Source: Aquiflexum sp.
GTDB taxonomy: Bacteria > Bacteroidota > Bacteroidia > Cytophagales > Cyclobacteriaceae
Direction of reading: 5' to 3'
Assembly: GCF_041751335.1 (NCBI RefSeq)
Contig: NZ_JBGSXS010000138.1
Span: 6,505-70,504, forward strand
DNA length: 64,000 nt
Shown: in pieces, positions 1 to 14,672 of the stretch
How positions within the stretch are numbered: position 1 is the stretch's first letter
Layout of the letters: the number at the start of each line of letters is the position of its first letter
Translations under genes and position numbers: made by a program
Notes under the pieces: generated by a model
Databases searched by the model: none
What the model was told of the DNA's origin: nothing
The model's input: the letters and a program-made list of their open reading frames with translations, nothing else

Positions 1-1885
1 CCAGCAGGTTCAAAAACCCACCTTGGTACTGAGTCATAACAAAACATTGGCAGCACAGCTTTATGGGGAATTCAAACAGTTTTTCCCAGAAAATGCTGTA
101 GAGTATTTTATTTCCTATTATGATTACTACCAGCCAGAGGCATTTATTCCAACCAGCGGAACTTATATTGAAAAAGACCTTTCGATCAATGAAGAAATTG
201 AAAAACTTAGGCTAAGTGCAACTTCGGCGCTTTTGTCAGGAAGAAGGGATGTAATCGTGGTCGCTTCAGTTTCCTGTATATATGGTATTGGAAATCCGGA
301 GGAATTTGGGAAAAATGTCATCCGACTTCAGGAAGGTGACCGGGTCCCAAGAAATCAATTGCTTTTCAAATTGGTGGATATCCTGTATAGCCGAACCAAC
401 AATGAAATGACGCATGGAACATTTCGGGTAAAAGGTGATACAGTTGATATTTTTGTTGCCTATGCGGATTTTGCATTCCGTATTTTCTTTTGGGGGGATG
501 AAATTGAGGCAATCCAACGAATTGATCCTGCGACAGGAAAAAAACTGTCAGATGAAAAAATCATTTCCATTTTCCCAGCGAACCTATTTGTAACCGGGAG
601 AGATGTCATTGATACGGCTATTCATGAGATTCAGGATGACCTGATGGGGCAAGTGGCTTTTTTTGAAAAAGACATGAAACTCATTGAAGCAAAAAGATTG
701 AGGGAAAGGACGGAATTTGACCTAGAGATGATCAGGGAATTGGGTTACTGTTCGGGTGTGGAAAACTACTCTAGGTATTTTGACAGGAGACAACCTGGAA
801 CCAGGCCATTCTGTTTGATTGATTATTTTCCGGATGATTTTCTTTTGGTGGTGGATGAAAGCCACGTTACACTTCCTCAGGTAAGGGGGATGTGGGGTGG
901 AGACCGATCACGTAAAATCAATTTGGTGGATTACGGCTTCCGTTTACCATCAGCTCTTGACAACAGACCACTGAATTTTGATGAATTTGAGAGCCTGATC
1001 AATCAAGCCATATATGTCAGTGCTACCCCAGCAGATTTTGAACTGGCAAAAACCGAAGGCGTGGTTGTAGAACAGATTATCAGACCCACAGGTCTTTTGG
1101 ACCCGATCATTGCTGTGAGACCCAGTGCCAATCAGATTGACGACCTTTTGGAGGAAATAGATGAAAGAATAAAATCCGGTGACAGGGTATTGATAACAAC
1201 CCTTACCAAAAGAATGGCAGAGGAATTGCAAAAATATTTGGAGAAAACAGGAGTAAAAAGCCGTTATATCCACTCAGAAGTAAAGCCTTTGGACAGGGTT
1301 GAAATCCTACGGGAACTTCGCTTAGGAGTATTTGATGTGCTCGTTGGTGTCAACCTTTTGCGGGAAGGTTTGGATTTACCGGAAGTCTCGCTAGTTGCTA
1401 TATTGGATGCGGATAAAGAGGGTTTCCTTAGAAATGAGCGAAGTTTAGTACAGACTATCGGGCGTGCGGCTAGAAACGAAAACGGAATGGTCATCATGTA
1501 TGCTGACAAGGTTACAGCATCCATGAAGTTGGCCATTGATGAAACAAGTAGAAGGCGAAGTCTCCAAATTGCTTATAATGAAGCGCATGGAATAACCCCA
1601 ACCACCATTATCAAATCCAAGGAGAAGATCATGGGACAGACAAAAGTTGCTGATAGTAAGAAAAATGCCAAAACTTACGAGGACATGGTCAATGCAGAAA
1701 CTTTGGTAGCTGCAGATCCACTGGTACAATACCTAAGCAAAGAAAAACTGGAAAAACTAATCGTCCAGACTCAAAAAATGATGGAAAAAGCAGCCAAAGA
1801 ACTTAACTTTATGGAAGCAGCAAGGTTAAGGGACGAATGGCAGGGATTGAAAAATAGATTGGAGCAGATGAAGAGAGGGGTTTGA
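1..1885 (+). CDS. uvrB: Excinuclease ABC subunit B (5' end lies outside the window)
   Basis: [44 protein letters not shown] and QTIGRAAR motifs; C-terminal UVR domain. The frame is open from the window edge. Confidence 0.98.
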
Positions 1886-1938
1886 AAGGGAGATGCGAGA
1901 GACTAGATTCGAGATTACAGAGAAGAGTTGTTAGAATC

Positions 1939-2402
1939 AAAGCTTGTCCCGATGCAAATCGGGGAATAAAGAGACAAAGCCTGCCCAGAAAAAACCAATG
2001 ACATAAATCGGAGCAGCCGTCACCCAGACGGAGGAAAGCCTGCCCCGTCCCAATAGCTACCTTAGATTCGGAGGGTCTCATGAGGATCAGTAAATGATAG
2101 ATTTAAACTTAAAAAGAACCTCTTGAGATCCCTCGTACCTACCAATGACGTAATTGGACCGGCCCGTCACCCCGTAGGAAGTGTCTCATGAGGATCCGAA
2201 AATGATTTAAATAAACATAAATAGGACCTCTGGAGATTCTTCGTACCTCAGAATGACGACTGCCTAGTAGATAATCTGATGTCATTCCTTTTCTGAACAT
2301 TTGTAAAATGTTGAGGACTCGGGATGACGGCTGCCTAGCTGGGAACTTGATGTCATTCCTTTTCTGAACATTATAAAAAATGTTGGGGACTCAGGATGAC
2401 GG
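1939..2402. repeat. REP/BIME-like array of palindromic units bounded by GTCA...TGAC
   Basis: Two type-A units (about 2018-2150 and 2164-2258) share GTCTCATGAGGATC and GAGATYCYTCGTACCT...AATGACG. Two type-B units (2277-2330 and 2348-2402) share an identical 25-mer, TGATGTCATTCCTTTTCTGAACATT. A TCCCGAT-GCAA-ATCGGGG hairpin lies at 1947-1964. Confidence 0.8.
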
Positions 2403-2417
2403 TTAAAAAATCCAAAA

Positions 2418-3056
2418 ATGACCTTACAAGAGATACATAAAATCGCACAACAGGGAGAGGGATTGAGAGTGGAATTCAAAAAGAAAGCTGCATTTCCTGA
2501 AAAAATCGTAAAGGAAATGATTGCATTGGCCAATACTGACGGCGGGTATCTGCTGATCGGGGTGGATGATGACGGTACTGTAAGCGGTCAGCGATTTATT
2601 GAAGAGGAGGTTTTTGTGATGGAAAAAGCGATAACAGAATTCATCAAACCCAAACTAGAATATCAACTACAAGTAATTAAATTGAACCAAAAAAAGGGAG
2701 TTGCGGTATTTACCATCAGCAGATCCAATAACAGACCACATTTTTTAATGGAAGAAAATAGAAAGAAAGCATTTGTTAGGGTAAAGGATAGGAGTATTCA
2801 GGCAAGTAGGGAAATGTGGGAAATTCTTAGAAGAGGAAAAATTCAAAAAGACATGGTTTTCACCTATGGCGAAAAAGAAAATATTTTGATCAAAACGCTG
2901 AGTGATAAAGGTAAGATTACCCTCAAAGAATTTCAGAATTTGGCCAAACTCCCGAGATTTTTAGCCTCAAAAACCTTGGTCCGCCTTGTTTTGGCCAATG
3001 TCATACGAATAGTTCCCCAGGAGCTTGAGGATTTTTATATTCTCAAAGAATCATAA
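2418..3056 (+). CDS. AlbA_2 (Schlafen-like) domain protein with probable C-terminal winged HTH
   Basis: EGLRVEFK...ALANTDGGYLLIGVDDDG signature; short C-terminal HTH-like region. Confidence 0.85.
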   Translation: MTLQEIHKIAQQGEGLRVEFKKKAAFPEKIVKEMIALANTDGGYLLIGVDDDGTVSGQRFIEEEVFVMEKAITEFIKPKLEYQLQVIKLNQKKGVAVFTISRSNNRPHFLMEENRKKAFVRVKDRSIQASREMWEILRRGKIQKDMVFTYGEKENILIKTLSDKGKITLKEFQNLAKLPRFLASKTLVRLVLANVIRIVPQELEDFYILKES

Positions 3057-3989
3057 AGGTAAAGCTGTCCCGAATTTTTGGTTGAATCCGGCTATCCCCT
3101 GTAACCCTCCTGTATGAAGGGCCAATAAATGGGATCCTATCGGAAAAAAGTCCTCCCTTATAAGCTCCATGATCCCAAACATCATTTTTCCAGTATAAAC
3201 TTGATCCAAAGGAATTTGGAATTGGCTGTAAAACCAACGTATAAAATCAATCAATTCCAGATTTGTTTTTCCATAGCCTCCAAAATGGAATTGATTGAAA
3301 ATCTGATAATCACCTGAAGGATTGATGTTGAATTTCGACAATAGCTTACTTATTTCATCAAATATGAAATCCCCTTTTAAGGCCGAAAATCCCAAAAGCT
3401 TTTGATGTGGAGCAATACTATCCATCAACCCTGCAAAAGTACCTCCTGTTCCGATTGAGGTAGTTATATGCGAAAAGTCAGATGTCAATTTATTTAATAT
3501 TTCCTTTGTCCCCTGAATGGCCAATTGATTAGTTCCTCCTTCGGGAATCACGTAAAAATCTCCGAATTCTCCTTCCAGCTTATTTATTATTTCCACATCA
3601 TTTTTTCTTCTATAATCTTCCCGATTCATATAATGCAATTGCATACCACATGACTGCGCAAAAGAGAGCGTTGGATTTAGGGGATGGTGTTCATCCCCAC
3701 GGATCACGCCGATAGCATCAAAACCCAATTTTTTAGCGGCGGCTGCCACAGCAAAAATATGATTGGAATAGGCTCCTCCAAAAGTCAAAAGAACTGATTT
3801 TCGTAGTCTTTGTGCTTCAATCAGATTGTATTTCAATTTAAAAAATTTATTACCTGAGGCCAATGGATGTACTTGATCCAGTCTTTTGATGGACAGACGA
3901 ATGCCTTTTTCCTTCAACAAAGGAAAATCAAGTTCTTGGGTCTCTATTTGGTTGGGGATTAACAACGCTCTCAAGTAATAAAACTCCAA
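3051..3989 (-). CDS. ACC deaminase/D-cysteine desulfhydrase family PLP enzyme (start uncertain)
   Basis: SGNKFFKLKY, TFGGAYSNH, IPEGG, GTGGT, LDQVYTGK and HTGGLQG motifs. Confidence 0.92.
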   Translation of the reverse strand: MEFYYLRALLIPNQIETQELDFPLLKEKGIRLSIKRLDQVHPLASGNKFFKLKYNLIEAQRLRKSVLLTFGGAYSNHIFAVAAAAKKLGFDAIGVIRGDEHHPLNPTLSFAQSCGMQLHYMNREDYRRKNDVEIINKLEGEFGDFYVIPEGGTNQLAIQGTKEILNKLTSDFSHITTSIGTGGTFAGLMDSIAPHQKLLGFSALKGDFIFDEISKLLSKFNINPSGDYQIFNQFHFGGYGKTNLELIDFIRWFYSQFQIPLDQVYTGKMMFGIMELIREDFFPIGSHLLALHTGGLQGIAGFNQKFGTALPL

Positions 3990-4015
3990 ATAGCAAAAAC
4001 TTTATCAAAAGCCCT

Positions 4016-4023
4016 TAATTTTG
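4016..4023 (+). promoter_or_regulatory. Bacteroidota -7 promoter element, 4 nt before the rluD ATG
   Basis: TAATTTTG matches TAnnTTTG. Confidence 0.6.
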
Positions 4024-4027
4024 CATC

Positions 4028-5071
4028 ATGAGAAATCAAATTGAACCTGAAAATTTTGAAGAGGACGAAGAAGTTGAACTATTTGAACACCACAGTTTTG
4101 TGATAGACAAAGGACAAAGTTTGCTGAGGATAGATAAATTCCTTACTGACAAAGTAGCCAATTCAACTCGAAATAGGGTTCAGAATGCCATAGAAGCAGG
4201 CAATGTTCTGGTGAACGGAAAACAGGTAAAACCCAATTATAAAATCAAGCCTTTGGATGAAATCAAAGTGTTTATGGAAAAACCGGTGATGCATTCTGAA
4301 GTACTTGCAGAACCCATTCCGCTAGATATCATTTTTGAGGATGACTACCTTTTGATTATCAATAAACCACCGGGAATGGTTGTCCATCCTGCCCATGGCA
4401 ATTGGACCGGAACACTCGTCAATGGATTGGTATATTATTTCAATCAGCTTCCTACCTTACCGGGAAATAGCGGTAGGCCCGGGCTTGTACATAGGATAGA
4501 TAAAGACACCTCAGGACTTTTGGTAATTGCCAAGTCAGAAATAGCCATGACAGATCTGGCAAATCAGTTTTTTCACCACAACATAGATAGAACTTATCTG
4601 GCTTTGGTGTGGGGAGAACCTAATGAGGATGAAGGCACAATCATTGCCCATGTTGGTAGAAGTCCCAAAAACAGAAAAGTCATGGAGTCCTACCCTGATG
4701 GTTCACAAGGAAAGCATGCCATTACCCATTGGAAAGTCATCAAAAGACTACGCTATGTCACTTTGGTTCAATGTAACTTGGAAACAGGCAGAACCCATCA
4801 AATACGGGCCCACATGAAACATATTGGACATCCCTTATTCAATGATTCCATGTACGGAGGAGACAAAATCAGAAAGGGAACCCAATTTGCCAAGTACAAG
4901 ACTTTTATACAAAACTGTTTTGACCTGATGCCAAGACAAGCACTTCATGCTAAATCCCTTGGCTTTGTTCACCCCATCACGAAGGAAAGAATGTACTTTG
5001 AAACACCCCTACCAACTGATTTTGAGGGGGTCCTTGAAAAATGGGAAAACTATGTCAAATATGAAAATTGA
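4028..5071 (+). CDS. rluD: RluA-family pseudouridine synthase with S4 domain
   Basis: RIDKFL S4 domain, NKPPGMVVHP, HRIDKDTSG, TGRTHQIRAH, QALHA. Confidence 0.93.
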   Translation: MRNQIEPENFEEDEEVELFEHHSFVIDKGQSLLRIDKFLTDKVANSTRNRVQNAIEAGNVLVNGKQVKPNYKIKPLDEIKVFMEKPVMHSEVLAEPIPLDIIFEDDYLLIINKPPGMVVHPAHGNWTGTLVNGLVYYFNQLPTLPGNSGRPGLVHRIDKDTSGLLVIAKSEIAMTDLANQFFHHNIDRTYLALVWGEPNEDEGTIIAHVGRSPKNRKVMESYPDGSQGKHAITHWKVIKRLRYVTLVQCNLETGRTHQIRAHMKHIGHPLFNDSMYGGDKIRKGTQFAKYKTFIQNCFDLMPRQALHAKSLGFVHPITKERMYFETPLPTDFEGVLEKWENYVKYEN

Positions 5072-5260
5072 GGGAATTTGGGATTTTAAAGTTGGATATT
5101 CGATCAAATAAAAACTTAATTACCATTGCTGAGTTTTCAAAACCGAAGGCTTCGAAATCGATTTAAAATAATTACTTTTTAAAAAATTCTTGTTTTTTTA
5201 CAAAAACTGTAAATTTTAGCTAATATTTTTACATAATTATAAAAAGTTAAGTTTTCTTGT

Positions 5261-5268
5261 TAAATTTG
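5261..5268 (+). promoter_or_regulatory. -7 promoter element upstream of tRNA-like element 1
   Basis: TAAATTTG matches TAnnTTTG, 38 nt upstream of the element. Confidence 0.55.
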
Positions 5269-5306
5269 TAATGTTAATAACAGCACTGAAATTAAATTCA
5301 TTGCAG

Positions 5307-5372
5307 TGTAGGATTAATAAAAGGCAAAAGTTTTCATAGAAGACTTTGGAGGTTCGAAACCTTCTCCTACAT
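5307..5372 (+). ncRNA. Minimal tRNA-like RNA, element 1 (acceptor stem plus T arm, no D stem)
   Basis: TGTAGGA 5307-5313 pairs with TCCTACA 5365-5371. T arm GGAGG-TTCGAAA-CCTTC at 5348-5364. 9-bp hairpin AAAGTTTTC-ATA-GAAGACTTT at 5327-5347. Unpaired GG-containing linker. Confidence 0.7.
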
Positions 5373-5403
5373 CCGGTTATTTTGGGTTTATTGTTAATTG
5401 ACT

Positions 5404-5440
5404 AAAGCTGTGAGATTTTGTTTCACAGCTTTTTGTTTTT
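5404..5440 (+). terminator. Rho-independent terminator after element 1
   Basis: AAAGCTGTGAGA-TTTTG-TTTCACAGCTTT followed by a T tract. Confidence 0.8.
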
Positions 5441-5639
5441 AATCCATAATAGCGAACATTAAAGTGGCAAATCATTGAAAGTATAGTTTTATTGAATATC
5501 CTTCATTGATAATACCCTAATTAAATACTCTTTTTCAAGGCGTAATTATTTTATTTACATTTATTATAGCTTATTTTTAAAAATAATATAAAAAATATAT
5601 CTTTTATTTAATTTAATTTTAATAAATAGATCCCTTTGT

Positions 5640-5647
5640 TAATTTTG
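5640..5647 (+). promoter_or_regulatory. -7 promoter element upstream of tRNA-like element 2
   Basis: TAATTTTG in the same TGTTAAWTTTG context as the promoter of element 1. Confidence 0.5.
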
Positions 5648-5751
5648 ACTCATTATTAAGCCAATGGACTTATCATTACTTGATAAAGAATGTTTGTCTA
5701 AAAAGTAAATATCTGCAAAAGTGCAGTGAATTAATTCCATTAAAATCATAA

Positions 5752-5887
5752 TGTAGGATGTTGAAACTGGCAGACAAGCCCTCCTGTCTCGGGGGTGGGG
5801 ATTCCGATTTTTCGGTTCGGATAAAGTGCATCAAGAGCTCTGATGTAGCCTAACTACCCCGTGGAGGTTCGAATCCTTCTCCTACAG
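5752..5887 (+). tRNA. Atypical tRNA or tRNA-like RNA, element 2: anticodon GTC (Asp) with a 67-nt branched variable arm
   Basis: Acceptor TGTAGGA/TCCTACA; D arm TTG-AAACTGGCAGA-CAA; anticodon arm CCCTC-CTGTCTC-GGGGG; variable region 5796-5862; T arm GGAGG-TTCGAAT-CCTTC; discriminator G5887. Confidence 0.8.
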
Positions 5888-5944
5888 CAAAAATGTTTAG
5901 TTCTTTTCAATTATTAGGCAAACTTCTTGTTTTAAGAAACATTT

Positions 5945-5964
5945 AACAGGTTGCCTGTTTTTTT
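5945..5964 (+). terminator. Probable terminator after element 2
   Basis: AACAGG-TTG-CCTGTT followed by a T run. An alternative longer pairing with TAGGCAA at 5915 is possible. Confidence 0.6.
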
Positions 5965-6038
5965 GCATTACAAATTCAAAAACCCTATCGCTATTTTTCC
6001 AAAGCATTTGTATTACTTTTACTTGCGTAGTTTGTAAT

Positions 6039-9000
6039 ATGGAAAACAAAAAGAAAGATAGCGTAGCAAAAAATAGGAGATACAGAAAATACCTTCGAAT
6101 AGGTGGTATTCTAGTTTTCGTATTGGTTTTCCTGCAAACGGTCTTTTATTTCGGTTCAGATTTATTATTGAGAAATTACCTCAAGGAGAGGGTAAATCAA
6201 GCCTCAGATAACAAATATGAGATTGATTTTGACAGATTTTATATCCTTCTTCTTCAGAGAGGTATCTCTTTCAAAGGTCTAAAAATCAATCCTGTTGAAG
6301 ATAAATTCATTGAACTTGTTGATGCACCCTATTACAAAATTTCCATTCCTGACATTTCTTTGACCCGACTGAATTACCTTTTCAGGAAAAAAGAATTTGT
6401 CATAGGCAATATAGATTTGGTTAATCCTGCTGTTGACTTCAGACTGAAAAAAGGGGATTCATTTGAACCTTCCACTGACGAATCGGCCCTCCTTATACTT
6501 CAGGAGGAAATCAAAAAATCCTTTTTGACAACCAGGTTAAAAGAAATCAGGATAAAAAACATCAATATTAAAGAGGCGGATGTTCTACTAAAAAATTTCA
6601 TCGCACAAAAGGCCATCAAGGCAGATCACACAAGCATCTATCTAAAGGACATTCAGTTGCTACAAATGAGATCTCCTGAAACACCTTTTAATGCAGAAGG
6701 CTTTTCTTTTGAGCTTCAGAATTTTGAAATCCTGCTATCGGATAGTGTTCACACCATCCAATCATCCGAAATCAAAGTCTCCTCAATTGATCAGTACATC
6801 GAGGCAAAAAGGGTGAATATTACTCCGGATTTTAGCAAAGCTTCAGCTACCTACTTTCAAGTTGAGCTGGAGGATTTACTCCTAAGTGATGCTGATATCA
6901 ACAAGGTTTTTTACACATCAGAAATAGAAGTCGGTGAACTCAAATTACAAAAACCATCATTCAATTTATTTTCCGGTATAAGACCTGAAAGAAAAGAAAT
7001 CAAACTGGAAACATTTGACCTTTATAATTTGATTGAAGGGATTTTGCAATCCATCAATATCAATCATTTAAAAATTGAGGAAGGGAAATTCACCCAAAGG
7101 GCTACATCCGATCCTGACAATTACAGGATTAAAGCAGAGCGGATAGATTTCAACATGGAGGATTTTTATGTGGGACCTAATGAATCCAAAAAAACCAATC
7201 AGTTCTTTTATGCCAATCAGGCTTCGGTCGAACTATTTCAGGTTGATTTAGCACTGGGAGATAGTCTTCATTGGATTCAGGGGGAATATGTAAGACTTTC
7301 CTCTTTTGATGATGAAATCAAAATTTCCGGATTCAAACTTTTCCCGATAAATGAAAATCAACAGCCTGAGGGTAAAACCCTTTTGGAAATTGAAGTTCCC
7401 GAATTGATGATCAACAATGCCAATCTCAAGAAAACTTATAATCAGGGCATCATTGATATCAATGAAATTGTTATCAACAATCCTAATATTTTGCTCAGGG
7501 ACGTTCAGGGTGGTAAAAATCAGGAAGGAGCTTTTGACTTAAAAAAAATATCGAGGGATTACCTTGAAGGCATCTACGTAAACCGTTTGGTCATTAAGGA
7601 AGGATCGCTCGTAGTGGACAATAACATCAGAATCAGACAGGATAGTCTTTCATTTGGCAAAGTAAGTGTGGTATTGGAAAACTTTGCCCTTGACCAGGAA
7701 ACGGAGGAGTCCGATAGTAAGGGAATATTCTGGGCAGACCACTTACAGCTTGAATTAGAAGACTACGCCCTAAAATTAGCGGATAACCTTCATGTCTTTA
7801 AGGCCGATAGGGTATTTATTGATACAAAAAACGGTCAGATAAGGATCAATGGCTTTGCCCTCCAACCATTCAACAAAAGCCAGATTCAGACATCTGTGGA
7901 CAGATATGGTGTCAGTACAACATTGGACATCTTTGTTCCCCAATTTCAAGCTACAGGAGTGGATGTTAGGAAGGCCTACTTTGATGGCATACTCAAAGTC
8001 CAGCAAATCCGAATCCCGTCTCCCAAGATAAATCTCTATAGATATCGTCCTAAGGTTGGAGACGATTCGGAAAAAATGGACAGTGGGGAAATGCTGAATT
8101 TATTGACCAATTACTTTTCAGAAGTTCAGGTAGATTCCCTTATCATTCAACGTGCAACCTTGAATTATGAAAACTTATTTGGAGACAGGACCAGGACATT
8201 TTCGGAGGATAATGTTTCTGTTGCGGTCAAAAACTTTCATATTTATGAAGGAATCAATCCAGATGCCATCAATTCGCTTTTTTCTGATGAAGTGGACCTT
8301 AGTCTCAACAATTATATATTTAATATAGCAGGTGGCAAATATAATATCCTAGCAGACAGGATCAATTTCAACACTGCAAAAGAAGAAATTATAACTCGAA
8401 ATGTCAGACTTACTCCAAGCGTAGGATTTTCTGATAAAACCAGAATTACAGCAGTAATACCCTCTCTCTCGTTTAGAGGAGTGGATCTTGAAGCATTTTT
8501 ATTTGACAATACATTGAACCTTGAAATGGTCAATCTTACAGGTTCGGCGGTTGAAATATTAGTCAACAATGACTGGAGAGACACCGAAGCACAATCCACT
8601 AGAAGGAGGGCAAGGGACAGAACCCTTCCAAAAAACATTGAAATCGTTATGATTGACACGATTGAAGCCAGCAATGCCCAGTTCAGTCTTTCTTTCAGAG
8701 ACAAGGGAATTCAGCGGGACTTGATCAATACAGGGATAAATTTAAGTGTTTTTGACTTTCTTCTGGATTCCGCAAAAATTGCAAAAGGTGAAATTGCAGG
8801 CTTTTTTGGCGGTATGTCTTTGGGTATTGATGAATTTTGGTTAACCTTAAATGACAGTATTCATCAGGTGACATTTTCCAAAGTAGAACTTGACACAAGG
8901 TATGAAGGAATATTGGTCAATAATTTCAGGATTATTCCCAAAAACCTTTCCGGAAAACCAGGAGTACCTGTTTTTTCAGGACATATTCCTACAGCCCTGA

Positions 9001-10403
9001 TCAAAACAAATTCACTGGCTGAATTGCAGACCAGTAAAGATCTTTGGATAAAAGAACTCAGGCTTTTTAGACCAGACCTCGAATTTTTTATTGACCAAGA
9101 AAAACCTGTAAATGTAAGGAAAGAAGAAAAATCAACTGAAAAAGGAATTCTAGAAAGTTTAAGAATTGATGAATTTGAAATTGTTGAAGGGGACTTTGCT
9201 ATTTTTGATAAAAACTCATCAAAAGCACCTCAAGAATTTAAATCAATCAATTTTGGACTTGAGAAGTTACAATTTGACCTTATAGATCTCAGTAGATTGA
9301 ACAGAAAAGAATTACTCAAAAAAGATTTTCAACTGACTCTCCCAAACTATGAAATCCTCCTTAAAGACAGTTTGAACAAAGTAAAAATCGGTCTGATTTC
9401 ATTAACTAATAATGAAATAAAACTCACCAATGTTGAATTTATACCCAGGTATGGTAGGTATCAGTATAGCAGGATGGTAGGAATGCAGACTGATGTAGCC
9501 AATATCCACATTCCAGTCATCATAATAGATGGAGCTGACCTTGATGGTTTTTTGGAAAATGAAACCATTGTTGCCAAATCAATCAGAATTAGCGATATCA
9601 AGGCTGATCTTTTCAGAGATAAAAGATTCCCTAAAAAGCAGGATGTTTTCAAGGCTATGCCGCAGGAATTAATGAAAAAGGCAGGAGTTCAGTTATCCCT
9701 AGATTCATTATTTATTGAAAATGCCACCATAAATTATCTTGAATTTCCTGAGAATGGTATGGTCCCAGGAAATATTTCTTTCAGCAATATGAATGTGGCT
9801 TTTTACCCATTCCATCTGACCAAAGAAAATGAACCATTTCCTGTTGAAGAAATTTTTCTTTTGGCCAATGCCAAACTCAATGGTCAGGCTGATCTGAATC
9901 TTCAGGGACAATTGTTTTTTGAAAAACCTTTTCCAATGAAAATCAGTGCTCAAATGGGTGAGTTTGATCTGGAATATTTGAATTCAATTCTTCAATCCAA
10001 TGCATTTTTGCGTGTCACGGAGGGAAAAATCAATGGTGCTGATTGGTCATTTACGGCGGATGAGAAAGAAGCCGTGGGTAGAATGATTTTGTTGTATTCG
10101 GATTTAAAACTGGAATTATTGGATGAAAGGACTCTCGAAAGAGGTACCGGTAGAACAGCCATACTCACTTTCGTTCTCAATACCTTTGCTGTCCGAAGCA
10201 ATAACCCAAGAAGATATCTCAGAAAACCCATCAGCTCCAACATATATGAACTTCGAGATACCGAACGGTTCATTTTTAATTACTTGTGGAGCACAACCCT
10301 TAGTGGGCTAAAAGGTAGCCTTGGACTAGGTCAACCAAAGGTTCCTAAAAGAAGGAAAATGGAAGCTGAAGAGGTGAGAAGGCGGAAAAAAGAGAAAAAA
10401 TAG
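6039..10403 (+). CDS. Large membrane-anchored, beta-rich repeat protein (AsmA/DUF748-like)
   Basis: 1454-aa ORF with one N-terminal TM segment, alternating hydrophobic strands and about six internal repeats. Confidence 0.65.
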   Translation: MENKKKDSVAKNRRYRKYLRIGGILVFVLVFLQTVFYFGSDLLLRNYLKERVNQASDNKYEIDFDRFYILLLQRGISFKGLKINPVEDKFIELVDAPYYKISIPDISLTRLNYLFRKKEFVIGNIDLVNPAVDFRLKKGDSFEPSTDESALLILQEEIKKSFLTTRLKEIRIKNINIKEADVLLKNFIAQKAIKADHTSIYLKDIQLLQMRSPETPFNAEGFSFELQNFEILLSDSVHTIQSSEIKVSSIDQYIEAKRVNITPDFSKASATYFQVELEDLLLSDADINKVFYTSEIEVGELKLQKPSFNLFSGIRPERKEIKLETFDLYNLIEGILQSININHLKIEEGKFTQRATSDPDNYRIKAERIDFNMEDFYVGPNESKKTNQFFYANQASVELFQVDLALGDSLHWIQGEYVRLSSFDDEIKISGFKLFPINENQQPEGKTLLEIEVPELMINNANLKKTYNQGIIDINEIVINNPNILLRDVQGGKNQEGAFDLKKISRDYLEGIYVNRLVIKEGSLVVDNNIRIRQDSLSFGKVSVVLENFALDQETEESDSKGIFWADHLQLELEDYALKLADNLHVFKADRVFIDTKNGQIRINGFALQPFNKSQIQTSVDRYGVSTTLDIFVPQFQATGVDVRKAYFDGILKVQQIRIPSPKINLYRYRPKVGDDSEKMDSGEMLNLLTNYFSEVQVDSLIIQRATLNYENLFGDRTRTFSEDNVSVAVKNFHIYEGINPDAINSLFSDEVDLSLNNYIFNIAGGKYNILADRINFNTAKEEIITRNVRLTPSVGFSDKTRITAVIPSLSFRGVDLEAFLFDNTLNLEMVNLTGSAVEILVNNDWRDTEAQSTRRRARDRTLPKNIEIVMIDTIEASNAQFSLSFRDKGIQRDLINTGINLSVFDFLLDSAKIAKGEIAGFFGGMSLGIDEFWLTLNDSIHQVTFSKVELDTRYEGILVNNFRIIPKNLSGKPGVPVFSGHIPTALIKTNSLAELQTSKDLWIKELRLFRPDLEFFIDQEKPVNVRKEEKSTEKGILESLRIDEFEIVEGDFAIFDKNSSKAPQEFKSINFGLEKLQFDLIDLSRLNRKELLKKDFQLTLPNYEILLKDSLNKVKIGLISLTNNEIKLTNVEFIPRYGRYQYSRMVGMQTDVANIHIPVIIIDGADLDGFLENETIVAKSIRISDIKADLFRDKRFPKKQDVFKAMPQELMKKAGVQLSLDSLFIENATINYLEFPENGMVPGNISFSNMNVAFYPFHLTKENEPFPVEEIFLLANAKLNGQADLNLQGQLFFEKPFPMKISAQMGEFDLEYLNSILQSNAFLRVTEGKINGADWSFTADEKEAVGRMILLYSDLKLELLDERTLERGTGRTAILTFVLNTFAVRSNNPRRYLRKPISSNIYELRDTERFIFNYLWSTTLSGLKGSLGLGQPKVPKRRKMEAEEVRRRKKEKK

Positions 10404-10583
10404 AGATACCTCGGAGGTAGACTAACAAGATATGAAAGGGTTAGAAACAAGAAACAAAGCCTGTCCCGAAAATTAGAGAACCAGGAAGCGAGTGCTTATA
10501 GTTCTGAATGCCCGCGCGAGTGATGAAAGACAAGAAAGAGTTGGGAATACAATAACATGTGCCAAATTTAGATTTTACAAAAA

Positions 10584-10603
10584 AAGCGGCATAAAAGCCG
10601 CTT
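10584..10603 (-). terminator. Terminator of metK
   Basis: AAGCGGC-ATAAAA-GCCGCTT with an A run on its left, which is a T tract on the minus strand. Confidence 0.8.
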
Positions 10604-10606
10604 GAT

Positions 10607-11860
10607 TTAAAGATTGAAAGTTCTCTTTATGGAATCCACATAATCTAACTTTTCCCAGGTAAACAGTTCTACATCAAAAGTCAAGGTCTTGCCATCAGGA
10701 GTTTTGAAAGTTTTGGTGACCACTTCATTTTTCCTTCCCATGTGACCATAGGCGGCAGTTTCCTCATAAATTGGACTTCTAAGTTTCAACCTCTGCTCTA
10801 TGGCGTAGGGTCGCATATCAAAGAGTTTTTCCACTTTTTTGGCAATCTCCCCATCACTTAACTGTACTTTGGATGTTCCATAAGTATTGACATAAATACC
10901 CATAGGCTTGGCCACACCAATGGCATAAGAAACCTGTACCAATATTTCATCGGCGATGCCTGCCGCCACCATATTCTTGGCGATATGCCTCGTAGCATAA
11001 GCAGCTGAACGGTCTACTTTTGAGGGGTCTTTCCCGGAGAATGCACCTCCCCCGTGAGCGCCTTTTCCTCCATAAGTATCTACAATAATTTTTCTACCAG
11101 TTAAACCAGTATCACCATGAGGACCCCCAATTACAAATTTTCCGGTCGGATTAATATGGTAAGTGATTTTATCCGTAAATAATGCTTGGATTTCAGGCTT
11201 CAATTGAGCAACCACCCTCGGAATCAAAAAATTGATCATGTCACTTTTGATCTTAGCCAACATTTCAGGTTCATCGTCAAAATCATCATGTTGTGTAGAT
11301 ACAACAACCGCATCAATTCTTTGGGGGACGTTATCATCTGAATACTCAATAGTAACCTGAGACTTCGCATCCGGCCTGAGATAGGTTATTTCCTTATTTT
11401 CTCTTCTGAGTAGAGCTAATTCTCTCAATATCCTGTGTGAAAGGTCCAAAGCCAAAGGCATATAATTATCAGTTTCCTTTGTGGCATAACCGAACATCAT
11501 TCCTTGGTCTCCGGCACCTTGTTCTTCTGGATTGGACCTGTCCACCCCTTGATTGATATCAGGGGATTGTTCATGGATGGCAGAAAGAATTCCACAGGAG
11601 TTCCCATCAAACATATAGTCACCTTTCGTATAACCAATACGGTTGATCACATCCCTGGCGATTTTCTGTACATCCAGATAGGTCTCGGATTTTACCTCAC
11701 CGGCAAGAATAACCTGTCCTGTGGTAACAAGCGTTTCACAAGCAACTTTTGAACTGGGATCAAAGGCCAAAAAATTGTCAATCAACGCATCTGAAATCTG
11801 GTCGGCGATTTTATCGGGATGACCTTCAGATACTGACTCTGAAGTAAATAAATATGGCAT
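10607..11860 (-). CDS. metK: S-adenosylmethionine synthetase
   Basis: [19 protein letters not shown] and GGGAFSGKD; start reassigned to MPYLFTSES. Confidence 0.98.
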
Positions 11861-12012
11861 ATAAATAATCGATTTTAACGCATGTTCTAACGGTGCGTAA
11901 AAATAAGGTTTCAAGGGGAAAGAAAAAATTTAATTCATAAACGGTAAATTCGATTCTTTCCAAATTTGGAACTTGATTACTAATACTATATTTTTAATTG
12001 ATGGAATCTCCT

Positions 12013-13461
12013 ATGGTAAAAAAAACTCTAATATTTATTCTAATTGCATTTCTCGCGCTTTTTCAGGAATGCAGGGAAAAGCAAAAAGCTCCTGAAATAA
12101 AATTTGACTTAAAAGGTGAAAGTAAACTCACTTTCAAAAATTTAAGCAATTCACCTGTTCAGGTCAAATTTGAAAAGTGGTCCAGCATTCCGGTGGACTT
12201 TGTTGATATTAATGCTGTAGTGGACCAAGGAGAAAGTTATTCGGTAAACTTGAAAAACCATAGCATGGATTATATCTATTTGGACTTAAACAAAGTAGAC
12301 TTCAATGTTTTTATGCTACCCGGTTCTAATGAAACCATTACTATTTATAAAAATGATTCGATTGATTTCTCTGGTTCTTTGGAAAGTATCAACCAATTTC
12401 TTTATCAAAACTCTAAAAAAGACTTGGGCTTTAACAAGCTTAATCATGTCAGTGCCATGGCAACTCATGGAGAAAAAGAATTTAAGCGATTCATCCAATT
12501 AAGTGACTCGGTTCATCAGGTCCAATTGAAAAACCTCGAATCCAACAAGTCATATTTGCCTGATTGGTATGTAAAGCTGGAAAAGGAAAGATTGGCATAT
12601 AGAAATGTGGCAAATAAAATGAACAGCATATCCTACAGAAAAAGCATGCTCAAAATCGAAGATGAGATTCCTGAGGGGTTTATGGAAGAATTGGCACAAT
12701 CCGTACAATTGGAAAATGAGAAATTTATCGGGGAGTCAAATTATATGCTTTTTTTACATGAATACGCCAATTTTCACAGCCAAAAATTATCGGCTTATAA
12801 AACTGATAGTAGCGATACCAAGCAATCATTTATAATATTGAAAGCGCAAGAAATTGATAAATTGTTTGCTGGTAAAGTTAAAGATGCCTACTTAGCCGAA
12901 CTTTCAAGCATGTTGATTAAGAATGTCAGATCGGAATATGATTCTTTGGTTTTAAATTATTTCACTGATGAGGAATTACGGGATTTAATCAGGGAGTTCT
13001 ATGAATCAAGTGTGACATTGAAGCCTGGGACACAAATGCCCTATTTCTTTCTTGAAAATCAAATGGGAGAAGATGTAGAATCCAAAGACTATCTCGGCAA
13101 CATTTTGCTGATAAATTTTTGGGCAGATTGGTGCAAGCCCTGTATTGAGGAATTTCCCCATGAAAATGCTCTTGTGGAAAAATATAAAGGAAAGCCTGTA
13201 AAATTCCTGAACATCTGCATTGAATCCAAACCGGAAAGGTGGAAGGAATATATCCGCAAATATGATCTTAAAATGGACAATCTCTTTGCTGAGGAGAATT
13301 GGACCCGAAAGCTAAAAAATGATTATGGCATTCTTGGGATTCCGCATTCAGTCCTTATCGACTGGAATGGAAATATTGTGGAAAATAAGACAAGAACTGC
13401 TAGTAGGGGAATAGATAAATTGATTGATGAGTTGTTAGAGGAAATGAAATCACCCTTTTAA
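12013..13461 (+). CDS. TlpA/ResA-like thiol-disulfide oxidoreductase, probable lipoprotein
   Basis: Signal peptide ending in Cys; C-terminal NFWADWCKPC and GIP motifs. Confidence 0.85.
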   Translation: MVKKTLIFILIAFLALFQECREKQKAPEIKFDLKGESKLTFKNLSNSPVQVKFEKWSSIPVDFVDINAVVDQGESYSVNLKNHSMDYIYLDLNKVDFNVFMLPGSNETITIYKNDSIDFSGSLESINQFLYQNSKKDLGFNKLNHVSAMATHGEKEFKRFIQLSDSVHQVQLKNLESNKSYLPDWYVKLEKERLAYRNVANKMNSISYRKSMLKIEDEIPEGFMEELAQSVQLENEKFIGESNYMLFLHEYANFHSQKLSAYKTDSSDTKQSFIILKAQEIDKLFAGKVKDAYLAELSSMLIKNVRSEYDSLVLNYFTDEELRDLIREFYESSVTLKPGTQMPYFFLENQMGEDVESKDYLGNILLINFWADWCKPCIEEFPHENALVEKYKGKPVKFLNICIESKPERWKEYIRKYDLKMDNLFAEENWTRKLKNDYGILGIPHSVLIDWNGNIVENKTRTASRGIDKLIDELLEEMKSPF

Positions 13462-13502
13462 TCCTTACCTTTGTCTTCCATATAACCAATCCCAAAACCC
13501 TC

Positions 13503-14672
13503 ATGAACGAAAGGTATATGCGAAGGGGTGTTTCTGCCTCCAAAGAAGATGTACACCAAGCAATTTCGAAATTAGATAAAGGACTTTTTCCTAAGGCATT
13601 CTGCAAAATAGTTGAAGATACTTTGGGAAATGACCCGGAATTCTGCAATATCATGCATGCAGATGGGGCAGGCACAAAGTCGTCATTGGCTTACATGTAT
13701 TGGAAAGAAACAGGTGATTTAAGTGTATGGAAAGGTATCGCTCAGGATGCCATTATCATGAATATCGATGACCTGCTTTGTGTCGGTGCCATCAACAATA
13801 TACTTGTCTCATCCACGATTGGGAGAAATAAAAACCTGATCCCCGGTGAGGTGATCTCAGCTATTATCAACGGCACAGAAGAAGTCCTGCAAATGCTGAG
13901 AGACCATGGGGTAAATGTAGTCCTAACAGGTGGGGAAACAGCCGATGTCGGTGACCTTGTCAGGACGGTGATTGTGGACAGTACAGTCACATGTCGCATG
14001 AGAAGGGATGATGTGATCTCCAATGAAAAGATCAGGGCCGGTGATGTGGTTGTTGGTCTATCCTCATCAGGCCAGGCCACCTATGAGGATTTTTTCAATG
14101 GAGGAATGGGCAGCAACGGTCTTACCTCAGCCAGACATGACATATTCAGCAAATTACTGAAAACAAAATATCCTGAAAGCTACGACCCAGCGGTACCTGA
14201 TGAGTTGGTATATTCTGGTAAGTACAATTTGACCGACCCAGCTCCAGGTCTACCCGTCGATATGGGTAAACTGGTATTATCCCCAACTAGGACTTATGCA
14301 CCAATAATGGTAGATGTTTTGAAATACCTACGTCCTAAAATCAATGGGATTGTGCATTGTAGTGGTGGAGCGCAGACAAAAGTGCTCCATTTTGTAGACA
14401 ATGTCCATGTCGTAAAAGACAACCTTTTTGAAACTCCTGTGCTTTTCCGAACCATTCAGGAAGAAAGTAAAACCGACTGGAAGGAAATGTATAAAGTATT
14501 CAATATGGGACACCGCATGGAAATATACCTGGAAGAACGATATGCTGAAGAAATCATTGATATAGCCGAAACTTTGGGTGTTGAAGCTAAAATCATCGGA
14601 AGAGTCCTCCCTCATGAAGGTAAAAAAGTAACCGTGCAGGGAAAACACGGCACATTTGAATATGAATCTTGA
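13503..14672 (+). CDS. purM: AIR synthase, Bacteroidota type
   Basis: RGVSASKEDVH, HADGAGTK, GGETAD, GSNGLT and VFNMG. Confidence 0.93.
   Translation: MNERYMRRGVSASKEDVHQAISKLDKGLFPKAFCKIVEDTLGNDPEFCNIMHADGAGTKSSLAYMYWKETGDLSVWKGIAQDAIIMNIDDLLCVGAINNILVSSTIGRNKNLIPGEVISAIINGTEEVLQMLRDHGVNVVLTGGETADVGDLVRTVIVDSTVTCRMRRDDVISNEKIRAGDVVVGLSSSGQATYEDFFNGGMGSNGLTSARHDIFSKLLKTKYPESYDPAVPDELVYSGKYNLTDPAPGLPVDMGKLVLSPTRTYAPIMVDVLKYLRPKINGIVHCSGGAQTKVLHFVDNVHVVKDNLFETPVLFRTIQEESKTDWKEMYKVFNMGHRMEIYLEERYAEEIIDIAETLGVEAKIIGRVLPHEGKKVTVQGKHGTFEYES

Follow-up and report, generated by a model that had tools for sequence, protein, structure and literature searches.

Genomic context of the two elements

The window, a 64,000-nt stretch of the genome of an Aquiflexum species (G000), carries two tRNA-like elements in tandem between an RluA/RluD-family pseudouridine synthase gene and a 1454-aa ORF that has no NCBIfam match at 1e-10 (Table 1). 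Both elements begin with the same 8 nt, 445 nt apart, and each is preceded by a promoter-like TAnnTTTG box, which we take to be the Bacteroidota-type -7 promoter consensus. The earlier note, made from the sequence alone, described an identical acceptor/T scaffold around unrelated inserts. The scaffold is indeed shared, the 25-nt T arm and 3′ acceptor strand being 96% identical. The interiors do differ in length (34 versus 104 nt), but that of element 2 is no foreign insert: it is made up of the D arm of a tRNA, an anticodon arm with GUC and a variable arm that branches, and the suggestion that the scaffold displays a cargo is not supported. Both trailers end in a terminator as claimed, and the terminator scan returned five terminator-like sites against 0.3 in shuffles. 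The trailer sequence of element 2 is not conserved, however, and at this locus the idea that a trailer is released as an sRNA is therefore confined to element 1. The quasi-palindrome reported in the leaders did not hold up, since it is not retained in both leaders of orthologous loci.

Table 1. Features of the locus (window coordinates)
Feature	Position	Strand	Basis or role
RluA/RluD-family pseudouridine synthase gene	4028..5071	+	upstream synteny marker; 13 loci with the gene in the orthologue comparison
-7 promoter box of element 1, TAnnTTTG	5261..5268	+	sequence; retained in orthologous loci
Element 1, minimal tRNA-like module	5307..5372	+	fold and orthologue comparison
Element 1 trailer, predicted trans-acting sRNA; terminator stem 5404-5432	5373..5439	+	invariance, target-site tests
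Trailer seed, U/G-rich	5380-5393	+	within element 1 trailer
-7 promoter box of element 2	5640..5647	+	sequence; retained in orthologous loci
Element 2, tRNA-Asp-like cloverleaf	5752..5887	+	covariation, covariance-model family
Intrinsic terminator of element 2	5945..5965	+	terminator scan (5945-5959)
1454-aa ORF	6039..10403	+	downstream synteny marker

Two further features lie near element 1. About 50 nt upstream of the promoter, two 5-nt arms separated by 5 nt form an inverted repeat (5198-5212); its downstream half-site recurs in orthologous promoters, and the repeat is a candidate regulator site. The leader also forms a hairpin (5277-5305) whose structure is retained in close relatives with a different sequence.

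Standard annotation passes over both elements. ARAGORN, run as the earlier note had proposed, called no gene in the window, and its 2484 predictions at a relaxed threshold were discarded as noise. In the Rfam search, likewise proposed, element 2 had no match and element 1 only a sub-threshold one to tRNA, at 20.3 bits where the cut-off is 29; gathering-level matches were absent in six related loci too.

Element 2 is a tRNA-Asp-like cloverleaf with a giant variable arm

The acceptor stem of element 2 (5752-5758/5880-5886) opens with a U1-A72 pair and is followed by a class-II-like D arm with a 3-bp stem. The anticodon stem (5779-5783/5791-5795) presents GUC at 5786-5788 with U37 at 5789, and a branched variable arm of 67 nt (5796-5862) leads into the T arm (5863-5879) and the discriminator G73 at 5887. 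The variable arm combines a helix of 4 bp with variable hairpins and a purine-rich internal loop that is conserved; this loop, present in all long copies, presumably resembles the UAA/GAN motif. Many long copies, for example L038, L043 and L054, carry a second conserved motif of 11 nt in the distal variable arm.

Taken alone, element 2 folds no better than its shuffles (z -0.07). The proposed covariation check bore the cloverleaf out, with 99.8% of cells paired across 32 diverse homologues (54-64% in slid controls) and double changes in 9 of 25 pairs; these loci were mostly found by an anticodon-arm pattern, and the structure was named from the same sequences. Further compensatory changes occur in the anticodon stem of G031 and G039. 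Our covariance model scores the family at 90 bits or more, versus less than 68 for ordinary tRNAs. By this measure 29 of 41 relatives have a member, as do 10 of 140 genomes from elsewhere in the phylum. Four lower-scoring matches proved on inspection to be divergent members, and by our estimate the species collection has the core pattern in about 1100 stretches. Of 141 family copies, 138 have U1 and 135 have G73; among the 55 copies found without the anticodon pattern, 51 have GUC and all have a pyrimidine at position 37. Element 2 is a full cloverleaf tRNA mimic that is uncatalogued in Rfam and missed by ARAGORN.

An asnC-like gene is divergent from the element in 45 of 72 loci. Recurrent neighbours in loci lacking asnC include an AAA_26 protein (three: L036, L055, L073), an amino-acid kinase (two: L063, L089) and an aminotransferase (one: L106). 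The window's genome has two further long copies on contig C351, lying in tandem (L164, G000:C351:145-517), with G33 in the anticodon loop and followed by an element 1-type trailer. A 76-nt member in another genome (L354, G037:C23:55338-55413) has an AUC anticodon and no giant arm; that genome has AsnA.

Aspartate identity is determined by G34, U35, C36 and G73, and the GatCAB determinant is U1-A72, according to the accessible part of the source (PMC9976931). The identity elements GUC, G73 and U1-A72 are all present in element 2, as are gatB and one aspS in its genome, which also has AsnRS. AsnA and GlnRS were not found in this genome, which is 89.9% complete; with GlnRS not found, GatCAB is needed for Gln anyway. 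Whether the AspRS is discriminating turns on signature residues, and a literature search gave nothing on the point. An AsnB-like protein is recognisable by its N-terminal motif only. Two near-identical 613-aa glutamine amidotransferase ORFs (G000:C122:35654 and C290:1733), together with the duplicated small contigs C41/C146, fit the 4.5% contamination figure of the assembly.

Element 2 shares the GUC cloverleaf and G73 with canonical tRNA-Asp, for which the genome has two ordinary genes. We nevertheless rejected a canonical decoding tRNA-Asp on the grounds of U1 in place of G1-C72, a pyrimidine at position 37 and the 67-nt variable arm. U37 and the giant arm are likely to bar element 2 from the ribosome, and it is likely to be a non-decoding aspartate carrier or sensor. 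A role of the family as a strict replacement of asnA was also rejected: AsnA was found in 4 of the 41 relatives, yet two of these four also have strong members of the family and a third has a divergent one.

Element 1 as a reduced copy

Element 1 comprises a 7-bp acceptor stem, a 13-nt unpaired linker containing GG, one variable hairpin, the T arm, U73 and C74, while the D stem and anticodon arm are absent. All 200 of its shuffled versions fold less well (z -4.5). The synteny comparison at rluD that had been suggested revealed a full-length copy with the same trailer in Algoriphagus (L041, L083) and short forms at this site in the window's genus, G008 and Echinicola. Eight distinct short forms in genome loci all keep the acceptor, T arm and C74, and five the 13-nt linker, with the discriminator drifting from G to U or A. 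The earlier note had conceded that an element 1 unpaired in relatives would count against the idea; the hairpin instead varies in sequence and re-pairs across the short forms. Metagenomes supplied two more short forms (three of 39 matches were short and two unparsed), and one 'short' match, L032, was left out as an adapter-bearing fragment at a contig end.

Among six orthologues, 3 of 38 interior columns are invariant, against 18 of 24 in the T arm and 3′ acceptor strand and 31 of 31 in the trailer. The genome G006 has independently lost the GUC loop and retains acceptor, T arm and trailer. Given this conservation pattern, amino-acid identity was lost, whereas the processing-enzyme surface and the trailer were kept. 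The suspected selection on the acceptor/T surface is supported. C74 is encoded in 39 of the 40 ordinary tRNA genes of the window's genome, which by motif also has an RNase Z-like gene. On comparative evidence, a conserved gene of the tRNA-Asp-like kind has been reduced in copy to give element 1.

The trailer and its siblings

A related U/G-rich trailer motif, in three main variants, follows within 50 nt of only 44 of 157 elements. In the window's trailer, the GGG of the seed is predicted to be partly paired in a weak hairpin. The seed also occurs without a tRNA body, divergent from asnC, in the window's genome and in four of five relatives with diverged flanks, and before a terminator on contig C400. 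The asnC-linked copy (L162, G000:C280:9300-9400) is a candidate free-standing sibling sRNA with a 5′ hairpin, the same seed and a terminator; about 50 nt of it are near-identical in G001, G186, G187 and G189, and it is absent at that place in G188. The C400 copy (G000:C400:3530-3625) places seed and terminator in the 3′ region of a gene for a 562-aa membrane protein, which we take to resemble L-lactate permease. To judge from its position, this sibling is possibly 3′-UTR-derived, and may link carbon source to the same targets. Feedback on the asnC mRNA itself was considered and rejected: a site was found in the window's genome only and in none of the 42 parsed asnC leaders of about 82 loci, and the site before asnC is not clearly present in five close relatives.

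Complementary sites at start codons

The trailer is complementary to the 9-mer AAACCCAAA. Of the 84 A6C3 9-mers, this one is the most frequent within 30 nt upstream of 4033 ORF starts, with start codons set by a simple first-ATG rule; it has 31 copies, versus 11 for the best A6C3 9-mer without CCC. Its reverse complement occurs three times, so the site is strand-biased. The motif peaks at -20..-11, with 46 occurrences versus 7-9 per bin further upstream. A site variant with U for one C, which could pair through a G-U wobble, is also enriched. The most over-represented word before ORF starts of this genome is a different one, a 9-nt repeat-like motif with 14 copies that stands in tandem upstream of thiolase in the genus.

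Catabolic enzymes account for 11 of 58 site genes versus 2 of 52 controls (60 were drawn from 284, and 52 of these were used; Fisher p 0.017, rising to 0.047 with a HutI-like fragment counted as a control hit), a category defined after the first hits, and 47 of the 58 site genes are not catabolic enzymes. The eleven are hppD (HPPD), hgmA (homogentisate dioxygenase), alanine dehydrogenase, serine dehydratase, two Glu/Leu/Phe/Val dehydrogenases, three acyl-CoA dehydrogenases, thiolase and FadD. In phhA and in one control, a CoA transferase, the site lies inside the first codons.

Sites and trailers also occur together between genomes. Other genera with the same trailer have the site in 16 of 21 orthologous leaders versus 18 of 282 for non-overlapping 6-mers, and trailer-less genomes have it in 1 of 34; site and trailer are inherited together, so that kin are not independent here. 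Clades with other seeds add to this picture. Where the seed continues with -AATGAG (the third type), 12 of 28 sites have the additional complement in front of the core, versus 1 of 15 in the window's genome; judging by their N-termini, we assume the site genes of this clade to encode amino-acid transporters, peptidases and TonB-dependent receptors. For the second trailer type, pairing with the leaders of its own group comes to -14.5 kcal/mol, versus -11.6 in trailer-less genomes; the third type pairs only slightly better with its own (-10.7 versus -9.6). Seed and site may covary between clades, with support for two of three seed types, while the window's own seed is not clade-specific genome-wide, with a ratio to control of 1.58 in cognate genomes versus 1.91 in another clade; the 'none' group of this count included G006 and G037, later found to have divergent members (G006 was moved for the 1/34 comparison). 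Such genome-wide pattern counts are noisy because most matches are not gene starts. By duplex energy, 14 candidate targets rank from 18 to 537 of 4033, and one of 20 trailer shuffles nearly equals the trailer in genome-wide pairing (462 versus 470). The trailer has the features expected of a base-pairing sRNA, namely a conserved seed before a terminator and conserved complementary sites near target starts.

Contigs from RNA runs of relatives

Contigs assembled from relatives' RNA runs cover the long element and the trailer, though such contigs cannot show ends or rank expression; the runs hold small shares of the stretch (0.04-0.08). Run X2 has flat depth across spacer and element, and in X4 and X6 the summed depth, which cannot rank expression, is far higher over element 2 than over the flanking genes. 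One 139-nt contig spans exactly 5752-5887, a weak hint. Contig breaks at 5375 coincide with paralogue divergence and depths cannot rank expression; neither is therefore used as processing evidence.

Interpretation and rival explanations

Of the functions proposed for the scaffold, a processing signal that releases a trailer is the best supported for element 1, though not for element 2 with its unconserved trailer. We lean, without great confidence, towards the view that element 1 is a tRNA-shaped processing signal that frees the invariant trailer as an sRNA, which would pair with the start regions of mRNAs for amino-acid and acyl-CoA catabolism and probably repress them. A precursor would be transcribed from the -7 box, and RNase Z or a different enzyme of tRNA 3′ processing would cut it close to or at N73/C74. 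The product, an sRNA of about 65 nt, would pair about 10-20 nt upstream of the AUG, with repression rather than activation as the presumed effect. Ancestrally, a single transcript may have carried both the long RNA and the sRNA, probably under AsnC control at times of amino-acid or nitrogen scarcity; the window locus is not beside asnC. A broader scheme, which we regard as doubtful, would be an AsnC-controlled, RNA-only operon for amino-acid economy in which a hybrid tRNA (Asp anticodon, Asn-type acceptor) serves AspRS and GatCAB in making asparagine off the ribosome, and processing of the same transcript frees a catabolism-silencing sRNA; the two jobs would have been split in Cyclobacteriaceae, leaving the 66-nt tRNA elbow as a portable sRNA-release cassette.

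The trailer could also be a base-pairing sRNA that is never cut off, with element 1 as an attached stabilising 5′ structure or protein handle, a reading we consider unlikely. C74 is an RNase Z antideterminant in Bacillus, which favours an uncut precursor, as does the free-standing asnC sibling, where a small 5′ hairpin takes the place of the tRNA body; a processed end was not seen in the RNA-run contigs, which cannot show ends. Yet ordinary tRNAs of this genome encode C74 too, and tRNA geometry, T loop and C74 in all eight short forms go beyond what a protective hairpin needs. Slightly more unlikely is that AAACCCAAA is a Bacteroidota translation enhancer or protein-binding site, the trailer match being incidental, or that the trailer sponges another RNA like 3′ETS-leuZ. 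In its favour, start regions are rich in A, and enrichment extends to related motifs and, in another clade, to the seed complement; moreover, GcvB sites are themselves enhancers, as stated in the available portion of PMC3879156. Against a general enhancer, the same genes in trailer-less genomes are nearly devoid of the site, variant seeds track variant sites, and the same seed is found at three unlinked kinds of locus.

Very improbable, in our estimation, is the proposal that the two elements serve the repair of damaged tRNA as decoys or cofactors, in the manner of YrlA or the predicted b7a-tRNA. It would fit tRNA mimicry stripped of decoding features, and b7a-tRNA is by description strongly tRNA-like in the accessible part of its report (10.1101/312249). 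The neighbourhood speaks against it, the usual neighbour being asnC. Neither RtcB nor TROVE was found in the genome (89.9% complete), and a scan of up to two ORFs on each side of 25 of 80 loci (the other 55 have asnC, rluD or the 1454-aa gene) found RtcB beside none and a band-7 protein once, two genes away. An assignment to b7a-tRNA by neighbourhood was rejected on these counts, and the earlier idea of a decoy for tRNA-targeting toxins found no support, nor did a role in RNA repair. Hardly more credible is a decaying pseudogene or integration scar whose trailer owes its conservation to recent gene conversion with the C351 copy. Element 1 does share 90% identity with that copy over its 3′ end and trailer, and its interior diverges fast; both acceptor strands, the element's own promoter and the re-paired hairpin nevertheless persist across genera, inspection found no integrase among the ORFs at 1-14000, and gene conversion leaves the conserved sites in unlinked mRNAs unexplained. 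We retain the release of the trailer by a tRNA-shaped signal as our working hypothesis.

In Proteobacteria, the regulation of amino-acid metabolism by small RNAs is well established, and free-living Bacteroidota are major protein degraders in water and sediment. Our literature search found no description of such control for free-living Bacteroidota. If our reading is true, it offers a predicted regulon with named, mutable sites, a bacterial tRNA shape shrunk to an sRNA processing signal with intermediates visible in genomes, and a testable role for a widespread, uncatalogued tRNA mimic that is invisible to annotation.

Comparison with known systems

The literature search, whose coverage excluded most subscription papers, returned no description of the element family or the trailer. 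On the side of element 2, one of the closest systems is the tRNA-Asn of the AspRS and GatCAB route, with which it has U1-A72 and G73 in common according to the accessible parts of PMC9976931 and PMC4206432; unlike that tRNA, it has the Asp anticodon GUC, a pyrimidine at position 37 and a giant variable arm. The b7a-tRNA and YrlA Y RNA are likewise bacterial tRNA mimics that do not decode (10.1101/312249, as far as its available text goes). They are defined by RtcB, band-7 or Ro neighbours, which are not seen here, so that the separation is by neighbourhood and not by sequence. Rfam gave no model match above threshold for the elements or related loci, and a Y RNA was rejected with TROVE not found in the genome and no Y RNA match in Rfam. 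A tmRNA was likewise rejected, as ARAGORN found none in the window and one elsewhere in the genome.

For element 1, the comparison lies with RNAs shaped by processing. The mascRNA of MALAT1 is a reduced tRNA-like structure that acts as a processing signal for adjacent RNA (PMC8457004, in the part available). However, it is eukaryotic and matures the upstream RNA via RNase P, whereas the conserved partner of element 1 lies downstream. The E. coli 3′ETS-leuZ is a functional RNA from the 3′ trailer of a tRNA precursor that sponges sRNAs, by the accessible text of PMC8166272, and our trailer is likewise predicted to arise from the 3′ side of a tRNA-like precursor. Whereas 3′ETS-leuZ follows a working tRNA, the trailer here sits behind a non-decoding or vestigial carrier and has its complement in the start regions of mRNAs. 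In its predicted mode of action, the trailer of element 1 resembles the GcvB sRNA of enterobacteria, as portrayed in the available part of PMC3879156. Unlike GcvB, it follows a tRNA-like body, has a predicted length of about 65 nt and candidate targets that are mostly catabolic enzymes, and is without an Rfam match; membership of the GcvB family was rejected for want of any sequence or structure match in Rfam. The two elements are thus real, conserved and uncatalogued in Rfam, and can be likened to GcvB, 3′ETS-leuZ and mascRNA while being a member of none. What appears new here, from the sequence comparisons, is a reduced tRNA-like copy joined to an invariant trailer with complementary sites in start regions.
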